DNA of 64,000 nt. Origin: Escherichia coli. GTDB lineage: Bacteria; Pseudomonadota; Gammaproteobacteria; Enterobacterales; Enterobacteriaceae. Below are positions 3,852 through 63,272 of the stretch, piece by piece. Under the pieces are notes generated by a model. That model was not told the origin of the DNA, did no database searches, and was given only the letters and a program-made list of their open reading frames with translations. Location: NCBI RefSeq assembly GCF_036507355.1, contig NZ_AP027877.1. One strand, written 5' to 3'. Both the position numbers and the translations under genes were made by a program. The stretch's first letter is position 1; every line of letters begins with the position of its first letter.

Positions 3852-6527
3852 ATGGCTGTTACTAATGTCGCTGAACTTAACGCACTCGTAGAGCGTGTAA
3901 AAAAAGCCCAGCGTGAATATGCCAGTTTCACTCAAGAGCAAGTAGACAAAATCTTCCGCGCCGCCGCTCTGGCTGCTGCAGATGCTCGAATCCCACTCGC
4001 GAAAATGGCCGTTGCCGAATCCGGCATGGGTATCGTCGAAGATAAAGTGATCAAAAACCACTTTGCTTCTGAATATATCTACAACGCCTATAAAGATGAA
4101 AAAACCTGTGGTGTTCTGTCTGAAGACGACACTTTTGGTACCATCACTATCGCTGAACCAATCGGTATTATTTGCGGTATCGTTCCGACCACTAACCCGA
4201 CTTCAACTGCTATCTTCAAATCGCTGATCAGTCTGAAGACCCGTAACGCCATTATCTTCTCCCCGCACCCGCGTGCAAAAGATGCCACCAACAAAGCGGC
4301 TGATATCGTTCTGCAGGCTGCTATCGCTGCCGGTGCTCCGAAAGATCTGATCGGCTGGATCGATCAACCTTCTGTTGAACTTTCTAACGCACTGATGCAC
4401 CACCCAGACATCAACCTGATCCTCGCGACTGGTGGTCCGGGCATGGTTAAAGCCGCATACAGCTCCGGTAAACCAGCTATCGGTGTAGGCGCGGGTAACA
4501 CTCCAGTTGTTATTGATGAAACTGCTGATATCAAACGTGCAGTTGCATCTGTACTGATGTCCAAAACCTTCGACAACGGCGTAATCTGTGCTTCTGAACA
4601 GTCTGTTGTTGTTGTTGACTCTGTTTATGACGCAGTACGTGAACGTTTCGCAACCCACGGCGGCTATCTGTTGCAGGGTAAAGAGCTGAAAGCTGTTCAG
4701 GACGTTATCCTGAAAAACGGTGCGCTGAACGCGGCTATCGTAGGTCAGCCAGCCTATAAAATTGCTGAACTGGCAGGCTTCTCTGTACCAGAAAACACCA
4801 AGATTCTGATCGGTGAAGTGACCGTTGTTGATGAAAGCGAACCGTTCGCACATGAAAAACTGTCCCCGACTCTGGCAATGTACCGCGCTAAAGATTTCGA
4901 AGACGCGGTAGAAAAAGCAGAGAAACTGGTTGCTATGGGTGGTATTGGTCATACCTCTTGCCTGTACACTGACCAGGATAACCAACCGGCTCGCGTTTCT
5001 TACTTCGGTCAGAAAATGAAAACGGCTCGTATCCTGATTAACACCCCGGCTTCTCAGGGTGGTATCGGTGACCTGTATAACTTCAAACTCGCACCTTCCC
5101 TGACTCTGGGTTGTGGTTCCTGGGGTGGTAACTCCATCTCTGAAAACGTTGGTCCGAAACACCTGATCAACAAGAAAACCGTTGCTAAGCGAGCTGAAAA
5201 CATGTTGTGGCACAAACTTCCGAAATCTATCTACTTCCGCCGTGGCTCCCTGCCAATCGCGCTGGATGAAGTGATTACTGATGGCCACAAACGTGCGCTC
5301 ATCGTGACTGACCGCTTCCTGTTCAACAATGGTTATGCTGATCAGATCACTTCCGTACTGAAAGCAGCAGGCGTTGAAACTGAAGTCTTCTTCGAAGTAG
5401 AAGCGGACCCGACCCTGAGCATCGTTCGTAAAGGTGCAGAACTGGCAAACTCCTTCAAACCAGACGTGATTATCGCGCTGGGTGGTGGTTCCCCGATGGA
5501 CGCCGCGAAGATCATGTGGGTTATGTACGAACATCCGGAAACTCACTTCGAAGAGCTGGCGCTGCGCTTTATGGATATCCGTAAACGTATCTACAAGTTC
5601 CCGAAAATGGGCGTGAAAGCGAAAATGATTGCTGTCACCACCACTTCTGGTACAGGTTCTGAAGTCACTCCGTTTGCGGTTGTAACTGACGACGCTACTG
5701 GTCAGAAATACCCGCTGGCGGACTATGCGCTGACCCCGGATATGGCGATTGTCGACGCCAACCTGGTTATGGACATGCCGAAGTCCCTGTGTGCTTTCGG
5801 TGGTCTGGACGCAGTAACTCACGCCATGGAAGCTTATGTTTCTGTACTGGCATCTGAGTTCTCTGATGGTCAGGCTCTGCAGGCACTGAAACTGCTGAAA
5901 GAATATCTGCCAGCGTCCTACCACGAAGGGTCTAAAAATCCGGTAGCGCGTGAACGTGTTCACAGTGCAGCGACTATCGCGGGTATCGCGTTTGCGAACG
6001 CCTTCCTGGGTGTATGTCACTCAATGGCGCACAAACTGGGTTCCCAGTTCCATATTCCGCACGGTCTGGCAAACGCCCTGCTGATTTGTAACGTTATTCG
6101 CTACAATGCGAACGACAACCCGACCAAGCAGACTGCATTCAGCCAGTATGACCGTCCGCAGGCTCGCCGTCGTTATGCTGAAATTGCCGACCACCTGGGT
6201 CTGAGCGCACCGGGCGACCGTACTGCTGCTAAGATCGAGAAACTGCTGGCATGGCTGGAAACGCTGAAGGCTGAACTGGGTATTCCGAAATCTATCCGTG
6301 AAGCTGGCGTTCAGGAAGCAGACTTCCTGGCGAACGTGGATAAACTGTCTGAAGATGCATTCGATGACCAGTGCACCGGCGCTAACCCGCGTTACCCGCT
6401 GATCTCCGAGCTGAAACAGATTCTGCTGGATACCTACTACGGTCGTGATTATGTAGAAGGTGAAACTGCAGCGAAAAAAGAAGCCGCTCCGGCTAAAGCT
6501 GAGAAAAAAGCGAAAAAATCCGCTTAA
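3852..6527 (+). CDS. adhE: Bifunctional acetaldehyde-CoA/alcohol dehydrogenase AdhE
   Basis: 891-aa [29 protein letters not shown]... with N-terminal aldehyde dehydrogenase and C-terminal Fe-ADH domains; strong RBS AGGAGA upstream. Confidence 0.97.
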
Positions 6528-44820: not shown

Positions 44821-45912
44821 ATGGGATTCAAATGCGGTATCGTCGGTTTGCCCAACGTCGGGAAATCTACCCTGTTCAACGCGCTGACCAAAGCCGGTAT
44901 TGAAGCGGCCAACTTTCCATTCTGCACCATTGAGCCGAACACAGGCGTCGTACCAATGCCTGACCCTCGCCTGGATCAACTGGCTGAAATCGTAAAACCG
45001 CAACGTACGCTTCCCACGACCATGGAATTTGTCGATATCGCCGGTCTGGTAAAAGGCGCATCGAAAGGCGAAGGTCTGGGTAACCAGTTCCTGACCAACA
45101 TCCGTGAAACCGAAGCGATCGGTCACGTTGTTCGCTGCTTTGAAAATGACAACATCATTCACGTTTCCGGCAAAGTTAACCCGGCTGACGATATTGAAGT
45201 TATCAACACCGAACTGGCGCTGGCAGACCTCGACACCTGCGAACGTGCGATTCATCGCGTACAGAAGAAAGCCAAAGGTGGCGATAAAGACGCGAAAGCT
45301 GAGCTGGCGGTCCTGGAAAAATGCCTGCCCCAGCTGGAAAACGCAGGTATGCTGCGCGCGCTGGATTTAAGCGCTGAAGAGAAAGCGGCTATTCGTTACC
45401 TGAGCTTCCTGACGCTGAAACCAACAATGTACATCGCCAACGTCAACGAAGACGGTTTTGAAAACAACCCATATCTTGACCAGGTGCGTGAAATCGCGGC
45501 GAAAGAAGGTTCTGTTGTGGTTCCGGTTTGTGCTGCTGTTGAAGCAGACATTGCCGAACTGGACGACGAAGAACGTGACGAGTTTATGCAGGAGCTTGGG
45601 CTGGAAGAGCCGGGCCTGAACCGTGTGATCCGTGCCGGTTATAAGCTGCTGAACCTGCAAACTTACTTCACCGCTGGGGTGAAAGAAGTGCGTGCATGGA
45701 CCATTCCGGTTGGAGCAACCGCGCCGCAGGCAGCGGGCAAAATCCATACTGATTTTGAAAAAGGCTTTATCCGTGCACAAACCATCTCGTTTGAAGATTT
45801 CATCACTTACAAAGGTGAACAAGGCGCGAAAGAAGCAGGCAAAATGCGTGCAGAAGGTAAAGATTACATCGTGAAAGATGGCGATGTGATGAACTTCCTT
45901 TTCAACGTCTAA
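44821..45912 (+). CDS. ychF: Ribosome-binding ATPase YchF (Obg-family GTPase fold)
   Basis: 363-aa [43 protein letters not shown]... Confidence 0.97.
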
Positions 45913-45971
45913 ATAAAATTTGATGTCTCATGAGGTTTCACTGAATCTCAGAACAACGGTAAAACTCTATA

Positions 45972-45998
45972 AAATCCACGCAATTGCGTGGATTTTTC
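45972..45998 (+). terminator. Rho-independent terminator of ychF; core-genome/island junction lies just beyond
   Basis: Hairpin atccacgcaattgcgtggat followed by TTTTT. Confidence 0.7.
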
Positions 45999-46042
45999 AT
46001 TTCATGATGTCTCAAATCATCCCGTAAGAGCGCTGTCAAAAA

Positions 46043-46126: not shown

Positions 46127-47320
46127 ATGCTCACTGATACACAATGCCGCACTGCCAAACCGAAAGAAAAACTCTATCGACTCAATGATTTCAACGGTCT
46201 CTACCTCGAAGTGAAACCCAATGGTAAAAAGGCTTGGCGTTATCGGTTTAAGCTCAACGGTAAATCCAGCATGTTTGCGCTAGGTGAGTACCCGACGGTC
46301 AAGCTTGCCGAGGCTCGAGAAAAATGCGAGCAAGCGCGAAAGCAGGTTGCGGAAGGAGTCAACCCAGCGCAAGCTCGTCAGTTAGATAAGATTCGTAAGG
46401 TTAACGACGCATCCAACACCTTTGAGCTGATCGCCAAAGAGTGGCTGCAGATGAAAGACTGGGCCGAAATTACCAAAACACGCCGACTGGATATGCTTGA
46501 ACGTGTGGTTTTCCCCTCAATCGGTAAGCTTCCAGTCAGAGAGATCACCCCACACCATATCCTTAAAATTCTTCAGGAAACTGCCAAACGAGGAGCACCG
46601 ACAGTTGCCGCAGAAGCCCGTCGCACCATTTCATCAGTTTTCGAGTTGGCTGTGGCAACGCTTAGAGCTGATAGCGATCCTGTCTGGCCTGTACGCAAGG
46701 CACTTCCGGCGAATAAGACACAGCACAAACAGGCATTGAATCCACAGCAAATCGGGAAGCTATTAAGCTGTTTTGATAACAGTCGCGGCTCATATCAGGT
46801 TAACTATTGCATGTGGCTAATGTGGTGGACGCTGGCGCGACCAGCCGAAGTCACCGAGGCAGAGTGGGCAGAGTTCGATCTTGGTAACGCACTGTGGACC
46901 ATTCCGGCAAGGCGTATGAAAGCTCGTAGGGAACATGTTATTCCCCTTCCTTCCCAAGCCGTCAACATGCTCAAAACACTACAAGGATTAACCGGGCATA
47001 GGCAGCATCTTTTTCCGGGCAGGGATAATCCGCTAGGCCCAATGACATCGCACTCTCTGCGTCAACTACTTAAAAGCCTCGGATGGAATGGCACTTATAG
47101 CCCCCATGCTACCAGAACTACAGGAAGTACGCGTTTAAACGAAATGGGCTATCGACCTGATGCTATTGAGGCCCAACTTGCGCACGCTGATACCAACAAT
47201 GTTCGTCGCACATACAACCATGCAACTTATCTTGATGAGCGAAAGGTTATGATGCAAGACTGGGCAGATAAACTTGAAGGATGGGTAGGAAGCACACACA
47301 GCAATATTGATGTTTCGTAA
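46127..47320 (+). CDS. int: P4-type tyrosine integrase (island integrase)
   Basis: 397-aa ORF with the N-terminal arm-binding-like region typical of P4-family integrases and a C-terminal catalytic region ...HSLRQLLKSLGWNGTYSPHATRTTGSTRLNEMGYRPDAIEAQLAHADTNNVRRTYNHATY (R..H..R..Y). Confidence 0.85.
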   Translation: MLTDTQCRTAKPKEKLYRLNDFNGLYLEVKPNGKKAWRYRFKLNGKSSMFALGEYPTVKLAEAREKCEQARKQVAEGVNPAQARQLDKIRKVNDASNTFELIAKEWLQMKDWAEITKTRRLDMLERVVFPSIGKLPVREITPHHILKILQETAKRGAPTVAAEARRTISSVFELAVATLRADSDPVWPVRKALPANKTQHKQALNPQQIGKLLSCFDNSRGSYQVNYCMWLMWWTLARPAEVTEAEWAEFDLGNALWTIPARRMKARREHVIPLPSQAVNMLKTLQGLTGHRQHLFPGRDNPLGPMTSHSLRQLLKSLGWNGTYSPHATRTTGSTRLNEMGYRPDAIEAQLAHADTNNVRRTYNHATYLDERKVMMQDWADKLEGWVGSTHSNIDVS

Positions 47321-51504: not shown

Positions 51505-54500
51505 TTAAATATCTTCTGGTGATTCCCCCAGATACATCTTACGGTAATGATACACTTCAAAGAATTTCCCCTTGTCTTTGTAACTACTGATAAAGTAGCA
51601 ATGTGTTAAATACTTTAGCAGGATCTCATTACCTTCAGTTTTGTGAACTTTTGCTCGTTTGGTTTTATCCGCAATCAAATTATATTCTTCCGACACGAAG
51701 GCCATAAGCGCACGATTGATGTATTCAAAAGGCAGTTCTTCACACTCTAAAAGATGATTCAAAAACACAAGTCGAGTGTCATCTTCCGAAACATTAAGAA
51801 GGAGTGCTATACTGACTTTACTATTTAGGCTTATATGGTCGAAGAAACTATTGGTATAGTGCGGCCAGAGAACATTGATGATTGAAACTTTAGTCGTCAA
51901 CTCTATATCGTCATCATTGAGCACAAGCTCAATAAGTTCATTATCGAAATCTTCGTCATCTTGCAGATAAAACTCAATATTATTTTCAAAAACAGCAAGG
52001 TTGTTTCTAATCATAAGCGACAGACACTCATTGAGGCCCTTGCGACGTTGTCCCTCATAAATGCTGAGTACGTCTTCATAGAGCGCTTCTGACAGCAAAA
52101 CTCTGTTGCTCTCACAAAGTGCTTTAAATTTTGTCAGTGGCAGGTCACTGATTACCTTGTCGATACTTACAGGCAGCACGCTGATCAACTGTGCATATAA
52201 CGCGTCTGGCTTATCCGCTGCTGAAATGATGTGATTCACAACATTATCAATAGACTCCTCAGGAACACTGACCTTATGGCCTGAAAGCACCTCTGGATGG
52301 TGAGCAAAAAACGCCCACAATATCTCATCGTCGACATCGGTATACATGTAGTTAAATATGTTATCCCAGTTGGCAGCGACACGCCCATGTTTAAACAAGA
52401 GGTCATAAACAGTGAATGACGCACCCTCAACTACCGATAGCCTGATATTTTCAACTGTCGACAACTGCTGAACTTCAAAATCCATGTTTTCAATTATAAT
52501 TTCTTTGGAACGCTCAGTAGCGTCTGAATTAATTAGTGAAATAACGGATCCAACGCTTTCCTCAGAATGAATGAAATATTCCACAATAAACATCTCAAGG
52601 TTTGTATTTACAGCCTCAATTAAGCATGGGACTTTTTCACTCATAATTAAGGTATATGGATTGCGCGATAGTTCCTCAACATTCTTTCTGTTATTAGAGT
52701 ACGCATTAAACAGTGCAGTGAGGTTATTAATATTAAATACATACAGAAAATTCTCTGCGATAAACTTCACCAACGTACGTTCACTTTCATCGTTAGCTTC
52801 ATTGACGCTATCGAATACAATATTGAGCTCTTTTAATTTTATGCTGAATGACGCAATCTCATCGGGTCGTATGTATGTAAACAACGTAGTGTCTGTTTTT
52901 AATTCATGCAGATAATCCTGAACAGCACTTTGTCGGGTAATGTTTTCTATCAGACCAAAACGAAGTAATGACACAAATAACTGCTGATAAAAATCATCAT
53001 CAGAGTCAATGTCACGGTAAGTACTCATCGCCGCCATCAATTTACCCAATGTCTTTTCATCGCTTAAAATTAAATTAATTAAGTCATGATAGTCATCATT
53101 ACTAAATTCATAAAAATACGTCCGCATAGTGCGAATGATTAAGCCATGTGAGCAATAATTAAATAAATGAATAAAAACATCACGGGCAAAACCAGCTCGG
53201 CAGTTGATCAAAAAGCTAATTATATGCGGATGAAAAATCCCCTCGTAATATTTAAATGATAGCGACTCCATTTTATCTACAACATTGGAAACGTTATTCA
53301 GATGAATATCTTTTAACTCCTCAAAATTCACCTTAGCAGCGACCTTCTGGATATAAACATTATCTGATTTACTTAATGCACCTGCATGGAAGATAGAGCG
53401 ATATTGCATGTAATCCTGCTCAATATATCCATTTGACAACATGAAAAACAACAATTCCATATTGAAATTAATCGCTGAAGGCTTGGATGCATTTTTATTT
53501 CCCTTATCGTCAGTTGATGCAACATTAAGCAACCACTCACTCAATTTCGCTAAGGTTATTTTTTCACATAATTCATGAAGTGATAGGCCATTTCGTTGAT
53601 TAAGAACACGCTGTGTGTTTAAAATATTTTTAGATAATTGCTCAACGGTTTTTTGGTTCTTATCTAAAATAACTGGTGAGCGTTTGTTATATTCACGTAA
53701 ACTCTCAGCTCGCTTATTATGTGGAATTTGGAAGGTATCTTGATATTCATACCCGTTTCTTGAATATGTGATAGCTATTCCGGATGGAAGCTCTCTGTTC
53801 AGAAAATCACAAAACAATGATTCATCCCCACAAAGTTCAACAAAGCTCCAGCTACTCCCAACTTGCCCATACTTATTATGGCTTATATAAAACACTGTAT
53901 TCGATTCAATTTGTTCAGGAAGATAACGCCTTAGAATTTCAACCCTCAGATTTAAACTGGATGTTTGCAATTCCTTTTGTACTTTCACCAACTTTTCTTT
54001 CTGCTGAGAAATCTTTATTTCCAAATCTTTAAAATACACGTCATGTAGCGTTCTCTTAGAGTAAGCATTAACTATTCTGTATAAAAAACCATCCTGATTA
54101 TCAAGCAGAGTGAAATCTTTGGTACATAAATTTTTATACATTATCAAAGAAAATAACTTCACATCAGAAATCTCACCCGTAATTAATTTTTTAAAAATAT
54201 TAAATTCATTTATAACATTATTCATCACCCGCATATCAGTCAGGTAAAGGGATACTTTCTTGAAAAACTGCTCTTTATCTACCGAATTAAAGTTTATAAC
54301 TTTACTACTTAATATGTCATACGCATTCTCACTATCTACTGCAGGTATAATCGGCACAATAAAATCAAAAAATTTTGTTTGTGATTCAGCATCCTTTAAT
54401 AAATCCTCCCTGACTGCAAAAATAAATTTAATCGGTTTCTTTTCCAATAGTCTGGAATTGTTTATCACTTGATTTATTTCACGGAGCTTAATAAAAATAT

Positions 54501-55407
54501 GACCATTGTTTAAACGGTCTAAATCTTCAAATACGACAACTCTATACTTTGTTTTAAGGAAGAAGTAAACAATCTCATCAATATACAAATTTAGCAGAGA
54601 AGCTGTATTCTGTTTTTCCGCCGCAATTTCTGCCTTTAAGAGATTTACTTTATCAAGAGCAATTTTTCTGTCAAAAAATCCTATCCGATAAAAACGAGAC
54701 AGCAGATACCAACAAATGATAAATGATAGCGAACCGATACATCCCCAACGCCATACCGGATGTATCGCAATGAAATGACTCACCGCTGACGGTAATGAAA
54801 ACGTGTTGATAATTTTTTGAGGAAACAACAATGTAGTGACAACGATTGTCAGTATGAGAACAAAAAACAGCAAACAGGATGTTATTAGTATTTGCCCAAC
54901 ACTTCGGGTGTGAATGCGCTCTACCCGCGAATCTGGCAGCGTACCTTTATCCACTTTGTATAAAATCTGCTGTAATATGCTGTATTCAATGCTTTGTTCT
55001 TTTGATAAAGACTCGGAACTTTTTAGTGTCTCATCCGTTTCAAAGTTTGCCAGTGAGATAATCACGTGCTCATCCGCTGGTTTTAAACTTGTAAACCTGA
55101 GCCAATATTTCAGGCGGTGCCACAACCGCTTTCGCCCTTCAATTTTTTTAAGGTATGAGAGAATAACCGAGCTTTTACCCGCGCCATAGGACCCCGTGAT
55201 GGCGATGTTCTTCACATCATCCCGGCTGAGGGCATAATCCAACGCCTTAAAATAGGGTTGATATCCCTCTTTATCAGGATCGACAATCGGTGTTAGCGTT
55301 TGGAATTCCCTTTCCGTTCCTGAATTGTTTTCTGAAGTAACCTGAAGCCTTGCGACTGTTTTATGCAACCAGTCTGCGATCGTTTTCAACCCGAAAGACA
55401 GCGCCAT
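51505..55407 (-). CDS. Large (1300 aa) KAP/YobI-like P-loop NTPase with transmembrane hairpin inserted between Walker A and Walker B; long C-terminal region of unknown function. Candidate defence/conflict protein
   Basis: Walker A ITGSYGAGKSSV (about aa 70-81), two hydrophobic helices (about aa 171-195 ILITSCLLFFVLILTIVVTTLLF and 215-236 HPVWRWGCIGSLSFIICWYLL), Walker B-like VVVFEDLDR (about aa 290-298); Lys/Asn/Ile/Phe-rich composition; gene is conspicuously AT-rich versus flanks. Confidence 0.75.
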   Translation of the reverse strand: MALSFGLKTIADWLHKTVARLQVTSENNSGTEREFQTLTPIVDPDKEGYQPYFKALDYALSRDDVKNIAITGSYGAGKSSVILSYLKKIEGRKRLWHRLKYWLRFTSLKPADEHVIISLANFETDETLKSSESLSKEQSIEYSILQQILYKVDKGTLPDSRVERIHTRSVGQILITSCLLFFVLILTIVVTTLLFPQKIINTFSLPSAVSHFIAIHPVWRWGCIGSLSFIICWYLLSRFYRIGFFDRKIALDKVNLLKAEIAAEKQNTASLLNLYIDEIVYFFLKTKYRVVVFEDLDRLNNGHIFIKLREINQVINNSRLLEKKPIKFIFAVREDLLKDAESQTKFFDFIVPIIPAVDSENAYDILSSKVINFNSVDKEQFFKKVSLYLTDMRVMNNVINEFNIFKKLITGEISDVKLFSLIMYKNLCTKDFTLLDNQDGFLYRIVNAYSKRTLHDVYFKDLEIKISQQKEKLVKVQKELQTSSLNLRVEILRRYLPEQIESNTVFYISHNKYGQVGSSWSFVELCGDESLFCDFLNRELPSGIAITYSRNGYEYQDTFQIPHNKRAESLREYNKRSPVILDKNQKTVEQLSKNILNTQRVLNQRNGLSLHELCEKITLAKLSEWLLNVASTDDKGNKNASKPSAINFNMELLFFMLSNGYIEQDYMQYRSIFHAGALSKSDNVYIQKVAAKVNFEELKDIHLNNVSNVVDKMESLSFKYYEGIFHPHIISFLINCRAGFARDVFIHLFNYCSHGLIIRTMRTYFYEFSNDDYHDLINLILSDEKTLGKLMAAMSTYRDIDSDDDFYQQLFVSLLRFGLIENITRQSAVQDYLHELKTDTTLFTYIRPDEIASFSIKLKELNIVFDSVNEANDESERTLVKFIAENFLYVFNINNLTALFNAYSNNRKNVEELSRNPYTLIMSEKVPCLIEAVNTNLEMFIVEYFIHSEESVGSVISLINSDATERSKEIIIENMDFEVQQLSTVENIRLSVVEGASFTVYDLLFKHGRVAANWDNIFNYMYTDVDDEILWAFFAHHPEVLSGHKVSVPEESIDNVVNHIISAADKPDALYAQLISVLPVSIDKVISDLPLTKFKALCESNRVLLSEALYEDVLSIYEGQRRKGLNECLSLMIRNNLAVFENNIEFYLQDDEDFDNELIELVLNDDDIELTTKVSIINVLWPHYTNSFFDHISLNSKVSIALLLNVSEDDTRLVFLNHLLECEELPFEYINRALMAFVSEEYNLIADKTKRAKVHKTEGNEILLKYLTHCYFISSYKDKGKFFEVYHYRKMYLGESPEDI

Positions 55408-55668: not shown

Positions 55669-55713
55669 GTTGATACACCCATATAGATATATATACCCAT
55701 TGAGTGTATCAAC
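55669..55713. promoter_or_regulatory. Inverted repeat GTTGATACAC-N25-GTGTATCAAC upstream of the NTPase gene
   Basis: Perfect 10-bp arms at 55669-55678 and 55704-55713 flanking an AT-rich spacer (atatagatatatat); lies between the putative rep gene stop and the NTPase start. Confidence 0.35.
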
Positions 55714-55765: not shown

Positions 55766-56638
55766 CTACTTACGGGTTCTCACCCCAGAGGTAAATGTCA
55801 GTCCAGTAAACCCCATCTCATCCTGCTTACATAACGCCCGTGCCAACAGAACAGGCGGCAGCCTGTGTTTGGGGGTACGGCGTTTTCCTGCCTCATCAGG
55901 ATAAGGTCTTACTTCCAGCCACATCCCCTTGAAGCAGTATGTTACCTGCTCGTCAAAATCCTTCAGCTTCTGGCTTTTCATCGGCCGACTGATTATCCCC
56001 GCTCTGGCCCGCATATTTTTATCCCTCTTCATCGCCTTTCTTAGCGTTTTGAGCGCCCCCGGCTCTCTCGGCATCAGTAGATGCAGGTGAGGCATCCAGC
56101 GCTGGATATCGGTGTGAAAATCCAACTCGTAGTCACCCACTATTTTGCCCGTAAATCCGGCTCTTTTTATCATCTTGTAGACCCGCTCCCGGAACTTCTT
56201 ATGATCCCAGCGGCTGATCTCGTCTTCTTTCAGCATGGCATCGTAATAAACCAGCGTAACCACTCTGTACGCGCCCTTAGAGGCCCTCAGTGGGAGCAAT
56301 TCAGTCAGCTTACGTAACCTGTGCAGGCGGAAACACTGTGGGCAGGCCGCGCTACCACATTGATGTTCTGGCATACAGCCCTCCAGTTTTCTCTTTAACC
56401 GAAACATCCGCCCTCGCCACTTTTTGTGTGCTTTTCTGACTTCTTTGCTCTCATCCTGATTATCATTCCTGTTCTGCCGCACAGCCTTTCGTATTGCTTT
56501 TATGCGGTACAGGCGTTCCTTCTCCATTTGCTCCCGGGTTTCAAAACCCGGAATGGTAAGAGCTAACTTTTCCAGTTGGCGCTCTTCTTCTGTCAGTGAT
56601 GCATACACTGCTCGCGCAATACGGTTTGTACCAAACAT
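55766..56638 (-). CDS. Putative HUH-type replication initiation protein (inovirus Gp2-like), island-encoded
   Basis: Contains HLHLL (His-hydrophobic-His) motif in WMPHLHLLMPREP and a Cys cluster CGSAACPQC; start placed at Met 56638 directly after the alpA stop (track ORF overlaps alpA by 50 bp). Confidence 0.45.
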   Translation of the reverse strand: MFGTNRIARAVYASLTEEERQLEKLALTIPGFETREQMEKERLYRIKAIRKAVRQNRNDNQDESKEVRKAHKKWRGRMFRLKRKLEGCMPEHQCGSAACPQCFRLHRLRKLTELLPLRASKGAYRVVTLVYYDAMLKEDEISRWDHKKFRERVYKMIKRAGFTGKIVGDYELDFHTDIQRWMPHLHLLMPREPGALKTLRKAMKRDKNMRARAGIISRPMKSQKLKDFDEQVTYCFKGMWLEVRPYPDEAGKRRTPKHRLPPVLLARALCKQDEMGFTGLTFTSGVRTRK

Positions 56639-56639
56639 A

Positions 56640-56834
56640 TCAGCAACCTCCTCTGGTCCCACGGGAAGCAATCCACTCATTGACTTCACTTTCCAGCCAG
56701 GCCACCGCTCGTCCTCCTGTCAGGGATTTTTGGCGTGGGAAAGTCCCTTTTTCAATCATCCGGTACAGTGTGGCGCGGCTCACCGCACAGCGTTCCAGCA
56801 CAGCCTGAATTTTGACCAGTTTCATATCATTCAT
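56640..56834 (-). CDS. alpA: AlpA-family phage/island transcriptional regulator (MerR-like HTH)
   Basis: 64-aa ORF MNDMKLVKIQAVLERCAVSRATLYRMIEKGTFPRQKSLTGGRAVAWLESEVNEWIASR, the AlpA signature. Confidence 0.8.
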   Translation of the reverse strand: MNDMKLVKIQAVLERCAVSRATLYRMIEKGTFPRQKSLTGGRAVAWLESEVNEWIASRGTRGGC

Positions 56835-56941: not shown

Positions 56942-57547
56942 TTGTCGGGCCGACACTTTATGTCCATTGTCGGTCCGACAAAAGAGTCGTTAGAATGCTC
57001 AAAAATGAATGCATCAACGGGAGTTCGCGTGACAGGAAAAAGGCAGACCAGCCGCCAGAAACGGTCAGATAAAATGAGGAAAAATGCAGGATTGACTCAA
57101 GTGAAGGTTTACCTGGATGAAACCACTCTGCAGTTACTGGGGTTACTTCAGGAAAATATGTCAGAAGGTGATATGAAGGGTGATGAGGTCAATATGTTCC
57201 GTAGCATGGCTATAACGGCCAGTATCCACACCCTGGCAAAAGAACGACTGGGGGAACAAGAAGTATCGCATATGGTGATCAAGAACCTCGGTGCTGACTG
57301 CCCATCCGACGAAGCGACAGAAAACCCACGTAAGTTTCTTCTCCGGACGATGATTAACCACCTGTATGATAATGGCACACACAATCCGCACCGCCGTCGA
57401 TTGTCAGAAGTGGCTGGAATTATGAATGAAAGCAGTTTCAGGAACCCGAAGAACAAAAAAGGGGGATGGAGTGAAAATGATATCAGTCACTATGTCAGCA
57501 ATGACATAAAACTGGAAAATGATACCTCGGTTGATGTACCGGGCTAA
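56942..57547 (+). CDS. Hypothetical protein divergent from alpA; possible ribbon-helix-helix regulator (start uncertain)
   Basis: Internal segment MRKNAGLTQVKVYLDETTLQLLGLL resembles an RHH beta-strand/helix; real start may be one of the internal Met codons (about 57005 or 57074). Confidence 0.35.
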   Translation: MSGRHFMSIVGPTKESLECSKMNASTGVRVTGKRQTSRQKRSDKMRKNAGLTQVKVYLDETTLQLLGLLQENMSEGDMKGDEVNMFRSMAITASIHTLAKERLGEQEVSHMVIKNLGADCPSDEATENPRKFLLRTMINHLYDNGTHNPHRRRLSEVAGIMNESSFRNPKNKKGGWSENDISHYVSNDIKLENDTSVDVPG

Positions 57548-57760
57548 GCAAATCTATACACCAATATATTTATCTCTGGAATACCCTGGTCGGGGAGCAC
57601 GAATTAGTTATTCATCAGGGGTGGTGAGTTGGTCGTGCTTTCCCGGAAGGCAGGTGCGCCAACGCCAGTACTTGGTATACCTGTGGGCTATCAAAAATAG
57701 TCTCTGGCCCCGTTTGATGGTTTTAACCAACAGGCTGCGGTGGTCATCCCCCATGAAAGC

Positions 57761-58708
57761 TTACCAGCAACATAGCGCCCTGGAGGCTCTGTCTACAGCC
57801 TGCCTGCCCCTACAGTCATAGCGTGTGGTCGTGGATATATCCGCATGTCCTGCCAACTGGCGCACCACATTAATGTCCACTCCCTGCTCCAGCAGGCGGG
57901 TGATGAATGTCCGTCGCAGGTCGTGGGGGGTGAAGTAATCCACTTCTGCAGCTTCGCGTAACTGCGCCAACAGCCCTGTAAGACCCGTGGTGGTAAGCCG
58001 TTGTCGTCCTGGCTGCCCCGCACGACTGATGCGACTGAACAGCGGCCCGGCATGATACCCCCGGAGCTTCAGCCATCGCCGCAGTTGCATGCAGACTTTT
58101 CCGGAAAGGTGGATTTCCCGGATTTTGCGCCCCTTTCCCTGCCTGACAATCACGATCCCCGTGGCTACATCTATATCTCCCACGTCCAGGGCTACCAGTT
58201 CGGCGGCACGCAGACCTGCGCCACACAGAAGCAGCAAAATAGCCCGATTACGCTGGCAACGTACAGCGTCAGCCTTTCCGGCCGCCGCCAGCATGGCCCG
58301 AATTTCGGTCCTGTCCAACGCCCTGCCCAAGCGGGTGGCACTGCCAGTGACACGCCTGACTGAACGTATGCGCGTCAGTCTGTCAGCATCCAGAATCCCC
58401 ATACTGAAAGCCGCTCCGGCAACCGATTTCAGCGCCGACAGCGCCATGTTCACCGTGGCAACAGCATAGCCCTCATCCAGCAGCACCGAGCGTACCCGCA
58501 TCACGCTCGTGTAGTCCAACGTATGCCAGGGGTAGGTGTCGGGCTTCGCCCCCGGACGGAGGATACCGGCACATCGTCGGAGTAAGCTTTGCATCCCCCT
58601 GCGCCCGGCTGGCGTCAGGCTTGCCAGCCACAGCAATGCTGGGTTGATGGAGAGGGCATTTTGCGGGTGGACAGATGCCGCGCGTTTACCATTGCGGCTC
58701 GTGGTCAT
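57761..58708 (-). CDS. Tyrosine-type site-specific recombinase (XerC/XerD-like), GC-rich
   Basis: 315-aa ORF with catalytic region ...FTPHDLRRTFITRLLEQGVDINVVRQLAGHADISTTTRYD (R..H..R..Y) and LCGAGLRAAELVALDVGDID box; visibly GC-richer than neighbouring island genes. Confidence 0.7.
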   Translation of the reverse strand: MTTSRNGKRAASVHPQNALSINPALLWLASLTPAGRRGMQSLLRRCAGILRPGAKPDTYPWHTLDYTSVMRVRSVLLDEGYAVATVNMALSALKSVAGAAFSMGILDADRLTRIRSVRRVTGSATRLGRALDRTEIRAMLAAAGKADAVRCQRNRAILLLLCGAGLRAAELVALDVGDIDVATGIVIVRQGKGRKIREIHLSGKVCMQLRRWLKLRGYHAGPLFSRISRAGQPGRQRLTTTGLTGLLAQLREAAEVDYFTPHDLRRTFITRLLEQGVDINVVRQLAGHADISTTTRYDCRGRQAVDRASRALCCW

Positions 58709-58784
58709 AATATCATCCTTATTATTGATAGTGGGATATCCCGGTCAGGTCTGACCGGGAGTGAGGGTTAATATGTCTTCGTAG

Positions 58785-59405
58785 TCAGCGTTTTTTCACA
58801 CCATAATGCTGAAGGTAGCGATTCAGGCTCCGACCAGCGCCAGTCTCAAAATTCCATGTCCGCCAGATAAGCTGCCCCACTGTGTCGCGTATCACCAACC
58901 GGAAGTGGGTATGCAGGTCATCCTCAATGGCGACATTTTTATACGTCGCAACCACAGCCTCTGCTTCCAAACGAGTAAACGAATCTGGGGGCAGTTGTGG
59001 CGTCTGTATTGTGGGCTCTGGTGCTGCGCGGTCAGGACGTGAATGCCGTCCCTGTGTGATGTGACTGACGGCTTGGTAACTGCTCTGCCTCAGAAGTCCG
59101 GTGGTCTTCCTTGCCCGGAGAATATCAATGGAGGTAATGTGCGGAGACTGGGGGATAAAGCTGACATTACCCTGGTCTGTACGTACCAGGTCGTACTTTT
59201 CAACAATAGAATTCAGGGCCTCCGTCAGTGATATCTCTGCATCAATGTATGCCTGAATGGCACCTTTCCCGCTAAACGGCGTGTCGCTGAGAGTGAGTCC
59301 GTAGTGCTTCTCCAGCAAGTAAGCCAGCAGAGTGTGCCAGACATCAGCAGGGGACAGGCAACACGATAGTGTCCGATTTGGTGAGACCGGTTGTTTTTTC
59401 ATCAC
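58785..59405 (-). CDS. CbtA/YeeV-family type IV toxin homolog with about 80-aa C-terminal extension
   Basis: First ~125 aa align by eye to CbtA (..[35 protein letters not shown]..); ORF continues to 206 aa. Confidence 0.65.
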
Positions 59406-59511: not shown

Positions 59512-59895
59512 CTACTGTCCCGAAGACCGGGAAGCCATGGGATAAATGGCGATATATACGTAGCCACAGGAGCCGAGCGTGTTAGCCTCGCAGATCAGCC
59601 CTTCTACCTGTAGCGTGATCCCCTTCGCCCTGCGCGGGTCCAGTTCACCGGACAGCAGAATGCTTTCCATCTGCCTCATGAGCAGCGGAAATATCTGGTC
59701 CAGATGGCGTGCGTCTCTGTCGCTGAACGTACCGGTGAATTCAGCCCGGTCAGCCAGAAAATGCAGGCAGCCGCCCTCCTGCACCAGACGCGCCCCGAAG
59801 CATGGCGTCACGTTGCACTGTAGCCCCCACAGATCTGTGGGTGGCGTATCGTAGTCTTTCAGATCTGTCATGTCAGGTGTCCTCAAAAGTCGCAC
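59512..59895 (-). CDS. CbeA/YeeU-family antitoxin homolog
   Basis: 127-aa ORF with ..LWGLQCNVTPCFGARLVQEGGCLHFLADRA..HLDQIFPLLMRQ..SGELDPRR.. matching the CbeA family pattern; immediately upstream of the toxin. Confidence 0.7.
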   Translation of the reverse strand: MRLLRTPDMTDLKDYDTPPTDLWGLQCNVTPCFGARLVQEGGCLHFLADRAEFTGTFSDRDARHLDQIFPLLMRQMESILLSGELDPRRAKGITLQVEGLICEANTLGSCGYVYIAIYPMASRSSGQ

Positions 59896-59931: not shown

Positions 59932-60369
59932 TCAGCTTTCCCACAGCACGCGCGTGGTGTAGACCCCGCTGGCGTAGTAGCTCAGGAAGTTACGCTCCCA
60001 CAGGCTGTAAAGCGCCCTTACTTCCGTTAGAGGCAAATCCCCCGTACAGTAGTGCCAGACATAGCCCTGCGACCAACTGATATCGATGATTTTCTCCAGC
60101 TCCGGGTAGACCGTGCCGACATAGCCAAAATCGGTGGCGTAGTCCAGGCACCACTCATCGCCCTGATGAATTAGCCGGATCTCCACCGGGTGATAACCCC
60201 CCCGCTCCACACTGTAGTCCGGGTCCCGGAAGTTGAATGTCACGGCGGTGATCCGATGTTTATGGGCGGGTATTTCGCCCGCCTCTGCCATCAGCAGTTC
60301 GTACAGTTGCAGACTGACAGGCAGCATAAAGCCTGCCGGCTGAATAACGGCATTGATGTTCAAGAGCAA
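59932..60369 (-). CDS. Hypothetical protein between radC-like gene and antitoxin
   Basis: 145-aa ORF, no motif recognised; occupies the position of the small DUF987 gene in CP4-like modules but is about twice as long. Confidence 0.4.
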   Translation of the reverse strand: MLLNINAVIQPAGFMLPVSLQLYELLMAEAGEIPAHKHRITAVTFNFRDPDYSVERGGYHPVEIRLIHQGDEWCLDYATDFGYVGTVYPELEKIIDISWSQGYVWHYCTGDLPLTEVRALYSLWERNFLSYYASGVYTTRVLWES

Positions 60370-60454
60370 AACCTCAGTGTTTACAGTTTAAAAAAACGTG
60401 AAGGGATAAAGCGGACGTGTCTTAGCGTGGATAATGTGTATTAAACCAGGTAAC

Positions 60455-60943
60455 TCACAGTAGCCCGTGTTCAGCGAAAGACCAGGCTTTGTCGCCTCCC
60501 ACAATGAGATGGTCGGTCACGCGGATATCCAGCAACGCCAGTGCGTCTGTAATTTTTTGGGTAATGAGTTTATCGGCCTGGCTCGGTTCAGGCTCACCAC
60601 TGGGATGGTTATGCACCAGTATCACAGCAGCAGCGTTGTGCGTCAGTGCCAAGCTGACTATTTCGCGGGGATAAACCATCGTCTGGCTCAGCGTACCGAT
60701 AAACAATGTCTGGTAGCCGAGAATATGATGTTGCTGTGAAAGCATTATCACACCAAAAGATTCACGGTTTTCAAGCGCCAGCTTCATCACCAGCCACTGA
60801 CGTACATCTTCAGATGAGGTGATTTTTCGGCGATTGCGAAACTGGCGGGTCAGCAATGAATGGGCAAACCGGATAATCTGTTCGCGGGTAACCGGCTCCA
60901 GCGTCTGATAATGACCGCTACGATCACTTGCGATAAACGTCAT
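60455..60943 (-). CDS. RadC-like JAB/MPN-domain protein (YeeS/YfjY-like)
   Basis: JAMM motif HNHPSGEPEPSQAD and C-terminal DHLIVGGDKAWSFAEHGLL; start set to Met 60943 to avoid overlap with upstream ORF (alternative 60997). Confidence 0.7.
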   Translation of the reverse strand: MTFIASDRSGHYQTLEPVTREQIIRFAHSLLTRQFRNRRKITSSEDVRQWLVMKLALENRESFGVIMLSQQHHILGYQTLFIGTLSQTMVYPREIVSLALTHNAAAVILVHNHPSGEPEPSQADKLITQKITDALALLDIRVTDHLIVGGDKAWSFAEHGLL

Positions 60944-60965: not shown

Positions 60966-61589
60966 TCAGAATTCACGTTCAACAAAGTAAATGGCATCCG
61001 GCAGCAACGTATGGCGCTTCAGCTCAGGTTGTACTGAAAACGTGTCCTTTCGCTGGCTGCGTATCCCCAGGCTATCAAACAAAAACAACCGGGTAGCATC
61101 GGTACGAACCACCACTGACCAGTGCCATGTGGTCCCCATAATCACCACGCGCTGCGCCTGATTCTCCGGTGAAGCCAGCCAGTCGCTGATATCATGAAAT
61201 ATTCGGTGAGTTCTCAAGGTTCGATAACGGAAGGGAGTATGAAAATAGAGGGGATAATGTTGGGCGTAATGCCCTCTCAGCAGAACATCTGCTATCAGGT
61301 GGTCCATCTGCTCTTCATCCAGGCCAAGCGTCAGGAGATCAAATAAGTCCCATCGTCGCTTATAGCTGCTTAGCAGGCGGTACATTAATTTTTCCCGCCT
61401 TACCCTGCCGTCATAGAGGTAACTCAGGGTATTAATCAGGCTGTAGATGCCACACAAATAGTCATGCTGTCCCTGGCGGGACGCATGAACGTCTCGAGGA
61501 AGTGTCATTGTAAATTTCCGGGATAAGTGATGGCTGTGAACCAGCCGGAATGGTGGTGATACAGTGGCTGAGCGCATGATGGCAGCCAC
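60966..61589 (-). CDS. Hypothetical protein with conserved-looking Cys and His (possible cysteine-hydrolase fold)
   Basis: 207-aa ORF; LCGIYSL near N-terminus and HWSVVV near C-terminus; sits where CP4-like elements usually carry an anti-restriction gene but does not resemble ArdB/KlcA by eye. Confidence 0.4.
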   Translation of the reverse strand: MAAIMRSATVSPPFRLVHSHHLSRKFTMTLPRDVHASRQGQHDYLCGIYSLINTLSYLYDGRVRREKLMYRLLSSYKRRWDLFDLLTLGLDEEQMDHLIADVLLRGHYAQHYPLYFHTPFRYRTLRTHRIFHDISDWLASPENQAQRVVIMGTTWHWSVVVRTDATRLFLFDSLGIRSQRKDTFSVQPELKRHTLLPDAIYFVEREF

Positions 61590-61665
61590 TGTATAAATTA
61601 TAACAAAATCAATACATTAATGCAAGTGATTCTTGTTATCACTTATCCAGCGACTCCTTCACTTG

Positions 61666-62046
61666 TTACTGGTTAACGTCTCCTTCAGACAGGTCCCTTG
61701 CAACCTGAGCCAGAGCCTGCTGCAAAAGTTTATCCCTAGAGGCCGGTTTCATGGTACGGAACAACTGTATCCACAGGTTAAGCTGCTCGTCTGCTGAAGT
61801 ATCTGCCGCATCCCGCTCACTTTTCAACGCCATCCCTGCCGCGCTGATATGGTACAGAAACCCCTTCCCACTGGTGCGTTTGCGGCGGATTTCCGGATGT
61901 AGGGCTGTGAGCTTTTCCAGACGTAGCCGCGCCCATTTCGCTGTGCCCGGCATTCCTTCCATTCCGGCAAACTGCTCTGCTGTAAGCCACTCCCCACTGT
62001 CCGTCATTCCGGCATCACAGGGCTCAGTCATCTGTTCACTGCTCAT
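61666..62046 (-). CDS. Hypothetical acidic protein, possible DNA-binding regulator
   Basis: 126-aa ORF MSSEQMTEPCDAGMTDSGEWLTAEQFAGMEGMPGTAKWARLRLEKL...; the left end of IS5 abuts its 5' region. Confidence 0.4.
   Translation of the reverse strand: MSSEQMTEPCDAGMTDSGEWLTAEQFAGMEGMPGTAKWARLRLEKLTALHPEIRRKRTSGKGFLYHISAAGMALKSERDAADTSADEQLNLWIQLFRTMKPASRDKLLQQALAQVARDLSEGDVNQ

Positions 62047-62077: not shown

Positions 62078-63272
<1,195 letters not shown>

Follow-up and report, generated by a model that had tools for sequence, protein, structure and literature searches.

An accessory tyrosine recombinase in the conserved backbone of a family of defence islands, and a candidate 34-bp site beside radC

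Why would a genomic island that already carries an integrase also carry a second tyrosine recombinase? The question is raised by a 64,000-nucleotide (nt) stretch of Escherichia coli DNA (the window; NZ_AP027877.1), a 100% match to strain ET881, in which a recombinase of 315 amino acids (aa), here called REC, is encoded on the strand opposite to the island's P4-type integrase (Table 1). An earlier note on this DNA had recognized both the second R-H-R-Y recombinase and its opposite orientation, and both observations hold. It had gone on to interpret the gene as a separately acquired, GC-rich module that might invert or excise the adjacent toxin–antitoxin (TA) or NTPase genes. Comparison with related islands leads to a different answer. 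Judged by gene order, REC is no separate insert but a conserved core gene in a widespread family of bacterial defence islands, and it most likely acts on a 34-base-pair (bp) candidate site next to radC, not on the toxin or NTPase genes. Our tentative explanation, held with somewhat less than even confidence and built on comparison of sequences, is that REC and this site would work in the manner of Cre/loxP, as a system with a single site which either resolves multimers of the excised island or fuses copies of it.

The identity of the protein is clear from several directions. The open reading frame (ORF) is complete, begins with ATG, and its product matches PF00589 (Phage_integrase) with E=2.4e-32 and 112.5 bits against a cut-off of 27.1, which places it in the tyrosine recombinase superfamily. 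The catalytic hexad, R167, K192, H262, R265, H288 and Y297, is invariant across 15 aligned homologues, and because of this invariance the gene is not a fragment of an integrase, an eventuality that the earlier note had left open. A core-binding domain spans approximately residues 23–115 and a catalytic domain residues 133–311. The AlphaFold model has a mean pLDDT of 75, the N-terminal helices of residues 23–115 lying mostly at 77–94, and Foldseek aligned it over about 300 columns with XerA, Tn1549 Int (core and catalytic domains), IntI4, Cre, lambda Int 75–356 and XerH. A Pfam search gave no match to the arm-binding domain PF13356. The presence of a core-binding domain and the absence of an arm-binding domain are the marks of simple (Xer/Cre-like) tyrosine recombinases, and by its motifs and predicted fold REC is a canonical, intact, two-domain member of this class.

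Within the superfamily, assignment to the familiar groups fails. REC aligns with XerC over residues 60 to 297, well under the cut-offs of the XerC, XerD and IntI families. Orthology with XerC or XerD was rejected on scores of 123.5 against 335.15 (TIGR02224) and 101.7 against 329.6 (TIGR02225). An integron integrase was rejected on 78.6 against 265 (TIGR02249) and 54.9 against 435 (PRK15417), together with a single site per island and no array. A FimB/FimE-type invertase was rejected on 43.9 against 221 (PRK09870), with a single site in the window and no inversion isomers in 40 genomes. Finally, an island integrase of the P4 or IntSXT type was rejected on the absence of PF13356 and a distance of more than 10 kb from either att repeat.

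The composition of the gene, which had suggested a foreign origin, finds its explanation in the relatives. REC has a G+C content of 0.607, and 0.655 at third codon positions, compared with 0.46–0.53 in the genes to its left, 0.37 in the NTPase gene and 0.50–0.58 in the genes to its right; the contrast noticed earlier is thus real, if only modest with respect to the right-hand neighbours. Acquisition as a separate module does not follow from it. About 50 loci share a conserved gene order with REC in the same place, and in 14 of 14 other loci measured the gene lies 2–13 GC points (typically 5–13) above its 4-kb flanks. Because REC is richer in GC than its flanks in every locus measured, high GC is a trait of the family, not a sign of recent acquisition.

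The gene order itself was obtained by mapping the ET881 core proteins onto some 50 loci from Enterobacterales, Aeromonas, and marine or Pseudomonadales metagenome-assembled genomes (MAGs). It opens with p175 and a helix-turn-helix (HTH) gene on one strand, followed by p126; then come DUF2787, p180 and RadC in an order specific to each lineage, optionally CbeA and CbtA-DUF905, and REC. Beyond REC lie a convergent, variable pX gene (170–250 aa), AlpA, a 270–410-aa protein and often a protein of about 500–570 aa, the latter matching primase/helicase PHROGs in locus L014. All 40 complete E. coli genomes that contain the core are colinear. The P4-type integrase is found on either side of the core, depending on the locus, and different P4-type integrases accompany it. 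REC homologues with 40–78% identity are abundant in Enterobacterales and Aeromonas and occur also in marine and Pseudomonadales MAGs, and the allele seen here is present in 25 of 5426 complete E. coli genomes. Homologues on plasmids (38% identity) stand beside mer operons in unrelated contexts and were uninformative. The earlier suggestion of tandem or nested elements survives in part, in that a P4-type integrase lies at each end of the ET881 island; REC is not the integrase of a nested element.

A candidate for the DNA on which REC acts emerged from motif discovery, in which the short spacers upstream of REC in the lineage with a 309-aa recombinase were compared. The resulting motif stands right after the radC stop codon in every lineage. 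In 58 distinct instances, its left arm, GTTACYTGGTTTAA, and the first TTA of its right arm are nearly invariant, and its six central positions vary (TGTACG, TACACA, TATGCA, TGTGCA and others). The remainder of the right arm repeats the left one imperfectly, in inverted orientation; the two arms agree at 8 of 14 positions in the window, at 13 of 14 in L035 and at all 14 in L158. On its face, such a 14-6-14 layout, in which the arms are conserved and the centre is free, has the form of a tyrosine-recombinase core site. When compared by eye with sites of the dif/cer type (GGTGCGCATAA-N6-TTATGTTAAAT), only the inner TAA/TTA bases and part of the centre are similar, and the outer arms differ.

The distribution of the motif ties it to the island and to REC. 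A profile scan of about 50 loci found one strong copy per island, always directly after radC, with two copies only in L026. The 64-kb window contains one match at three or fewer mismatches, against 0.04 expected. Among 5426 E. coli genomes, 37 have the site, each in one copy, and 35 of these also carry REC; no site-like sequence apart from that of the island was found in E. coli chromosomes or in 72,556 plasmids. In most lineages, the 309-aa one and distant ones alike, a few to roughly 20 nt separate the right arm from the start codon of REC, and this adjacency is preserved even in a lineage whose REC bears a long N-terminal extension. A pattern scan of metagenomes returned 80 loci, about half of them chance matches without radC, and REC followed every radC-linked site for which 1 kb or more of downstream sequence was available. 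One palindromic core site per replicon beside the recombinase gene, the arrangement of Cre/loxP, is thus what is found, with direct adjacency in most lineages and a gap of 1.7 kb in the window.

Two further candidates were set aside. A half-site near the REC 3′ flank (57553–57578) is not conserved in relatives and was taken as a chance match. A cassette arrangement resembling that of integrons was also considered and rejected: two site copies occur in L026 only, and no convincing second site lies upstream of REC in the lineage of the window. In L026, a marine gammaproteobacterial MAG, the two copies are direct and flank a 218-aa ORF between radC and REC (5444–6471).

Natural chimeras point to the same 34 bp. 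The mutS island of strain ET665 (L004) agrees with ET881 at 98–99% over the 3.6 kb that end at the site, but at only 61–87% beyond it. Compared with L002, the same island is 67–98% identical before the site and 99–100% identical for more than 2.8 kb after it. The switch is confined to site positions +3 to +22, the last position discordant with L002 being +2 and the first discordant with ET881 being +23. In L096 and L100, a left module 100% identical to that of L004 is joined at this very point to a third type of right-hand module. One shared left module (98.6–99% identical to that of ET881) is therefore connected to three right-hand modules, which are 61–94% identical to each other, and always at the site. 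As read from these alignments, at least two exchanges have occurred inside the site, between partners only 70–87% identical around it.

How might a single site per island be used? We propose that REC would be a Cre- or XerS-like "one recombinase, one site" system residing in the backbone of an island with a P4-type integrase, AlpA and an HUH-type Rep. REC dimers would bind the core site after radC (60421–60454), and strand exchange would proceed across its 6-bp centre. Because each island has one site, the substrates would be two copies of the island. They could be joined in a dimer or concatemer formed by the excised and replicating circle, in which case REC would restore monomers; or they could be a resident island and a newly arrived circle, to be fused by REC. 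Exchange of half-islands would then arise as an evolutionary by-product of fusion. That REC binds and cuts the site is inferred from the comparisons above, as are replication of the excised island and selection for resolution. A replicating excised form would fit the context, which includes a Rep-like protein with HUH and Tyr motifs and its palindrome, a primase-helicase in relatives, AlpA, and a TA pair beside REC. The last has a parallel in ccdAB-resD of plasmid F, where a TA pair likewise lies next to a recombinase.

Several observations weigh against this proposal. In the lineage of the window, the site lies 1.7 kb from REC, with DUF2787, CbeA and CbtA-DUF905 in between, and two E. coli strains, NCTC11121 and NCTC9966, have the site and no REC. 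Because of these two strains and of the 1.7-kb gap, other uses of the site are conceivable: it could serve expression of radC, be an operator or promoter element of REC, or belong to another enzyme. The ET881 copy is moreover full of insertion sequences (ISs), the helicase is absent from it, and it may no longer cycle. As to the chimeras, 20–22 bp of identity within the site are available for homologous exchange, and the L004/L096 junction could in principle have arisen in that way. In the 309-aa lineage, neither of the two clean mosaics has its break at the site; one break lies in radC and the other in REC, so homologous recombination also shuffles the region. Change-point analysis of that lineage placed 5 of 14 triplets at the site under loose criteria, the triplets being non-independent; under strict criteria it yielded two mosaics, none at the site. 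It adds no support to site-specific exchange.

Conceivably, exchange was itself selected: REC would join an excised island entering the cell to a relative already resident there, at the site that both have in common, after which the cointegrate would be cut again by the P4-type integrase or by homologous recombination, leaving the cargo-bearing halves swapped. The three right-hand modules found with one left module (in L004, L096 and ET881) would be its products, variable defence cargo at both ends of the core would be its currency, and unrelated islands could pair through a left arm that even very divergent lineages conserve. However, the central 6 bp differ between lineages, which would block many pairs, and no tandem or cointegrate structure is present in 40 E. 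coli genomes; the documented independent events number only about two, and exchange may be a mere by-product of resolution. Exchange as the selected function is accordingly unlikely. Doubtful as well, though to be taken seriously, is a reading in which REC would be a conjugative relaxase of the MOB_M type (MpsA/MobK/TcpM-like) annotated as an integrase, the 34-bp inverted repeat its origin of transfer (oriT), and the island a mobilisable element (iMOB). Relaxases can also catalyse recombination specific to an oriT. A 2026 preprint describes MOB_M relaxases as abundant in chromosomes and often annotated as integrases, with an integrase nearby in 96% of cases; known MOB_M genes adjoin their oriT, and the genes ahead of REC, radC and DUF2787 among them, recall the leading regions of conjugative plasmids. 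Yet MpsA, MobK and TcpM are described as being without a core-binding domain (PMC8152469), and REC, which has one, does not fit that description. The alignment of REC with XerC from residue 60 onward is likewise unfavourable, as is a site with the 14-6-14 geometry of a recombinase core, the oriT of SGI1 being a 125-bp GC-rich region. The island, furthermore, already has a candidate HUH nickase with its own palindrome.

Improbable, too, is a role for REC as a secondary integrase, with the site as an attP through which the excised island could enter another target, on a chromosome or a plasmid, if the ychF or mutS site could not be used. A site beside the recombinase gene is the usual attP-int layout, and the core does occur with different P4-type integrases on either side; but the site is intact and internal in every locus examined, never split into element ends, no counterpart lies outside the island in the chromosomes and plasmids scanned, and REC is without an arm-binding domain. 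Inversion or excision of the adjacent TA or NTPase block, as the earlier note had it, is the reading to which we give hardly any credence. In Buttiauxella brennerae (L037, 10943–13410), the pX-AlpA-rep block is indeed inverted relative to REC. Homology to the window, however, stops in the AT-rich centre of the palindrome associated with p290, a palindrome that tracks the type of Rep and not REC, which suggests recombination at a nick site or origin and implicates the Rep/origin element instead of REC. In the window, the TA genes, the NTPase gene and REC are bracketed by neither direct nor inverted repeats; the only repeats around the TA block, the NTPase block and the whole island are the P4-type att repeats and IS copies, and paired sites of the REC type are missing, a single one being present. 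Inversion isomers are likewise missing from the 40 E. coli genomes with the core, and the NTPase is replaceable cargo. What can be retained is that REC probably does have a recombination site of its own, the likely one being that beside radC.

The surroundings of REC complete the picture of the island (Table 1). In ET881 it sits between ychF and ycgV, where an imperfect direct repeat of 113 bp marks its ends and no tRNA gene takes part. P4-type integrases pointing inward lie at both ends of this island (L011 15228–16421 and 43690–44886), with only one pair of att repeats; the second integrase is absent from strain A19. Defence cargo (type I restriction–modification (R-M), RADAR, DarTG, YobI-type NTPase) is located outside the core, at both its ends. 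At the cargo position of the window is a gene for a 1300-aa P-loop NTPase (51505–55407, minus strand; 37% G+C), assigned by RefSeq to the YobI family. It is variable cargo: in relatives its place is taken by DarTG, RADAR or type I R-M systems, or DarTG lies beside it. An IS5-family element (ISKpn26-like, 62147–63126) lies within the divergent p126-HTH gene region, the HTH gene is frameshifted in ET881, and IS21 and IS1 remnants occupy 47.9–51.2 kb; with its IS insertions and frameshifted HTH gene, this copy is probably degenerate. Strains A19 and EC476 have fewer IS elements. In E. coli NCTC11121 (L101), an island at yicC has the same radC module and 34-bp site without REC, its AlpA-rep module adjoining the integrase and its cargo following directly after DUF2787. 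A 322-kb Salmonella plasmid (CP101356, L093) carries E. coli ychF and the whole island, with a REC 99.4% identical and IS elements on either side; this looks like a captured chromosomal segment, not site-specific integration.

Table 1. Features of the ET881 island in the window (positions in window coordinates unless stated otherwise)
Feature	Position	Strand	Remarks
attL	45892..46004	+	ychF 3′ end and terminator; repeated at the far island end, beyond the window (L011 14993-15105 and 45182-45292)
P4-type (arm-binding) integrase	46127..47320	+	at the ychF end of the island; carries the arm-type domain
Palindrome downstream of p290	55669..55713		GTTGATACAC-N25(AT-rich)-GTGTATCAAC; candidate origin or nick site
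p290, putative Rep/nickase	55766..56638	-	"inovirus Gp2-like" (PMC12595487); Cys4, HUH and Tyr motifs
AlpA-family regulator/excisionase	56640..56834	-	
Two operator-like palindromes	56942..56980		TTGTCGG(G/T)CCGACA; at the pX gene start, overlapping the annotated ATG and facing the divergent AlpA gene
pX (p195)	56960..57547	+	convergent, lineage-variable gene
REC 3′ flank	57548..57760		about 200 bp, non-coding; conserved in the 315-aa lineage; travels with REC
REC	57761..58708	-	predicted simple (Xer/Cre-type) tyrosine recombinase, 315 aa; ORF with ATG start, Pfam, alignment, AlphaFold, Foldseek
GC-rich hairpin	58740..58759	-	CCCGGTCAG..CTGACCGGG, between DUF905 and REC; stem differs by lineage, pairing kept
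CbtA toxin fused to DUF905	58785..59405	-	206 aa; immediately upstream of REC, same orientation
CbeA/YeeU-type antitoxin	59512..59871	-	
DUF2787 gene	59932..60363	-	here between site and REC; upstream of p180 in the 309-aa lineage
Candidate REC core site, 34 bp	60421..60454	-	left arm GTTACCTGGTTTAA (60454-60441), centre TACACA (60440-60435), right arm TTATCCACGCTAAG (60434-60421); first base 1 nt past the stop codon of radC
RadC/JAB-domain gene	60455..60943	-	34-bp site always after its stop codon
p180 and p126	60966..62046	-	upstream genes of the radC operon; p126 a Mu-repressor-like HTH protein

The gene directly upstream of REC may encode a genuine CbtA-DUF905 fusion protein. RefSeq splits 58785–59405 into a truncated CbtA pseudogene and a small DUF905 gene, despite the single 206-aa ORF; a two-domain product is also found in L002, L003 and L006, and the relatives in L002 and L037 are 56–64% identical. 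On the other side of REC, the 3′ flank marks the boundary with the regulator/replication module and contains a nearly invariant 40-nt block, CCGGGAAAGCACGACCAACTCACCACCCCTGATGAAT. Examined as a possible RNA, the flank had no Rfam match, and it holds no clear inverted repeat of the recombinase type either.

The product of pX is probably a regulator of the island. The repeats between pX and AlpA differ between lineages together with pX, L028 having iteron-like GAYGWTCAGATYT there, and because the repeat families and the pX proteins change together, pX would appear to be a lineage-specific repressor. Being lineage-specific and co-varying with pX, these repeats were rejected as REC sites. Pfam and PHROG searches of p290, pX and p180 returned nothing usable. 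Conserved motifs in p290, namely Cys4, W-x-P-H-U-H-L-L and ITYCFK, are consistent with an HUH nickase or Rep. Aeromonas and the mutS islands of E. coli and Salmonella (L096/L100) have conserved the palindrome downstream of p290; it follows the p290/AlpA type, not REC, and is missing from L002 and L097, both of which carry REC. Together with a 25-bp spacer, which is too long, this excluded it as a site for REC.

What would be gained if the proposals held? Defence islands with an integrase, AlpA and RadC are common, and their mosaic turnover has been widely noted and poorly explained in mechanism; in the literature we found no prior description of their accessory recombinase. There is a small but appreciable chance that the radC-linked site and REC constitute a dedicated lox-like docking system, by which divergent defence islands would fuse and swap their cargo-bearing halves site-specifically. 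Modular turnover of defence islands would then have a defined mechanism, distinct from integration, transposition and homologous exchange. Should the function instead be ordinary multimer resolution, the system would be a useful but unsurprising addition. Either way, the 34-bp site and the natural chimeras joined at it provide a testable handle on whether the excised form is kept monomeric and on how halves are exchanged. A rule for annotation also follows: a second "site-specific integrase" found immediately after radC, DUF2787 or cbtA in islands of this kind is a backbone gene and not evidence of a nested element.

Among known systems, the closest in architecture are Cre/loxP of P1, XerS/difSL, XerH/difH and archaeal XerA/dif. 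As in these, REC has two domains and no arm-binding domain, with one palindromic core site per replicon; its model finds full-length structural matches in XerA, XerH and Cre, and in most lineages its site lies beside its gene, as in the single-recombinase Xer systems whose gene abuts the site. The candidate site has a 14-6-14 geometry, compared with 13-8-13 in loxP. Unlike the Cre and Xer enzymes, to which it is only 17–26% identical in sequence (with an XerC score of 123.5 against 335 bits), REC resides in a chromosomal island that integrates by means of another, P4-type, integrase, is separated from its site by 1.7 kb in the window, and has a role predicted from sequence. A parallel of a different kind is offered by plasmid multimer-resolution tyrosine recombinases, among them ResD of plasmid F (site rfsF), encoded in the ccdA-ccdB-resD operon. 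There as here, a TA pair immediately precedes a tyrosine recombinase and points the same way, the element has replication genes of its own, and a role in keeping monomers is presumed. The TA family of the REC island is CbtA/CbeA, in distinction to that of F, its host element is normally integrated, and the comparison of the enzymes is one at the level of the superfamily.

With the MOB_M relaxases (MpsA of SGI1, MobK of pIGRK, TcpM of pCW3), REC shares the position of a second "integrase-like" gene in an integrase-bearing island and an adjacent cis site with an inverted repeat. It departs from them in its core-binding domain and complete hexad, in the lack of an MpsB-like partner gene, in a site of the recombinase-core kind, and in the separate HUH nickase candidate of its island. 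Gammaproteobacterial pipolins (PMC11551731) are similarly bimodular defence islands with DUF2787 and two tyrosine recombinases; both of theirs, however, are arm-type (IntSXT, IntP2) and piPolB is their hallmark, whereas here piPolB is absent and REC is simple. Matching the island as a whole in class are the IntY/AlpA/"inovirus Gp2-like"/RadC islands (Pseudomonas I23/I44/I55, VPI-1; PNAS 2025), which excise and are transduced (PMC12595487). These, like the Vibrio phage-defence elements, share with it a P4-type integrase, AlpA, an adjacent Gp2-like/HUH protein, RadC, HTH proteins, defence cargo and the lack of transfer genes. Their insertion site is tmRNA, as opposed to ychF, mutS or yicC here, and no second Xer-like recombinase or radC-linked site is described for them (PMC12595487). 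Set among these systems, REC is an uncharacterised, conserved backbone recombinase of a known class of islands, paired with a newly recognised candidate site.

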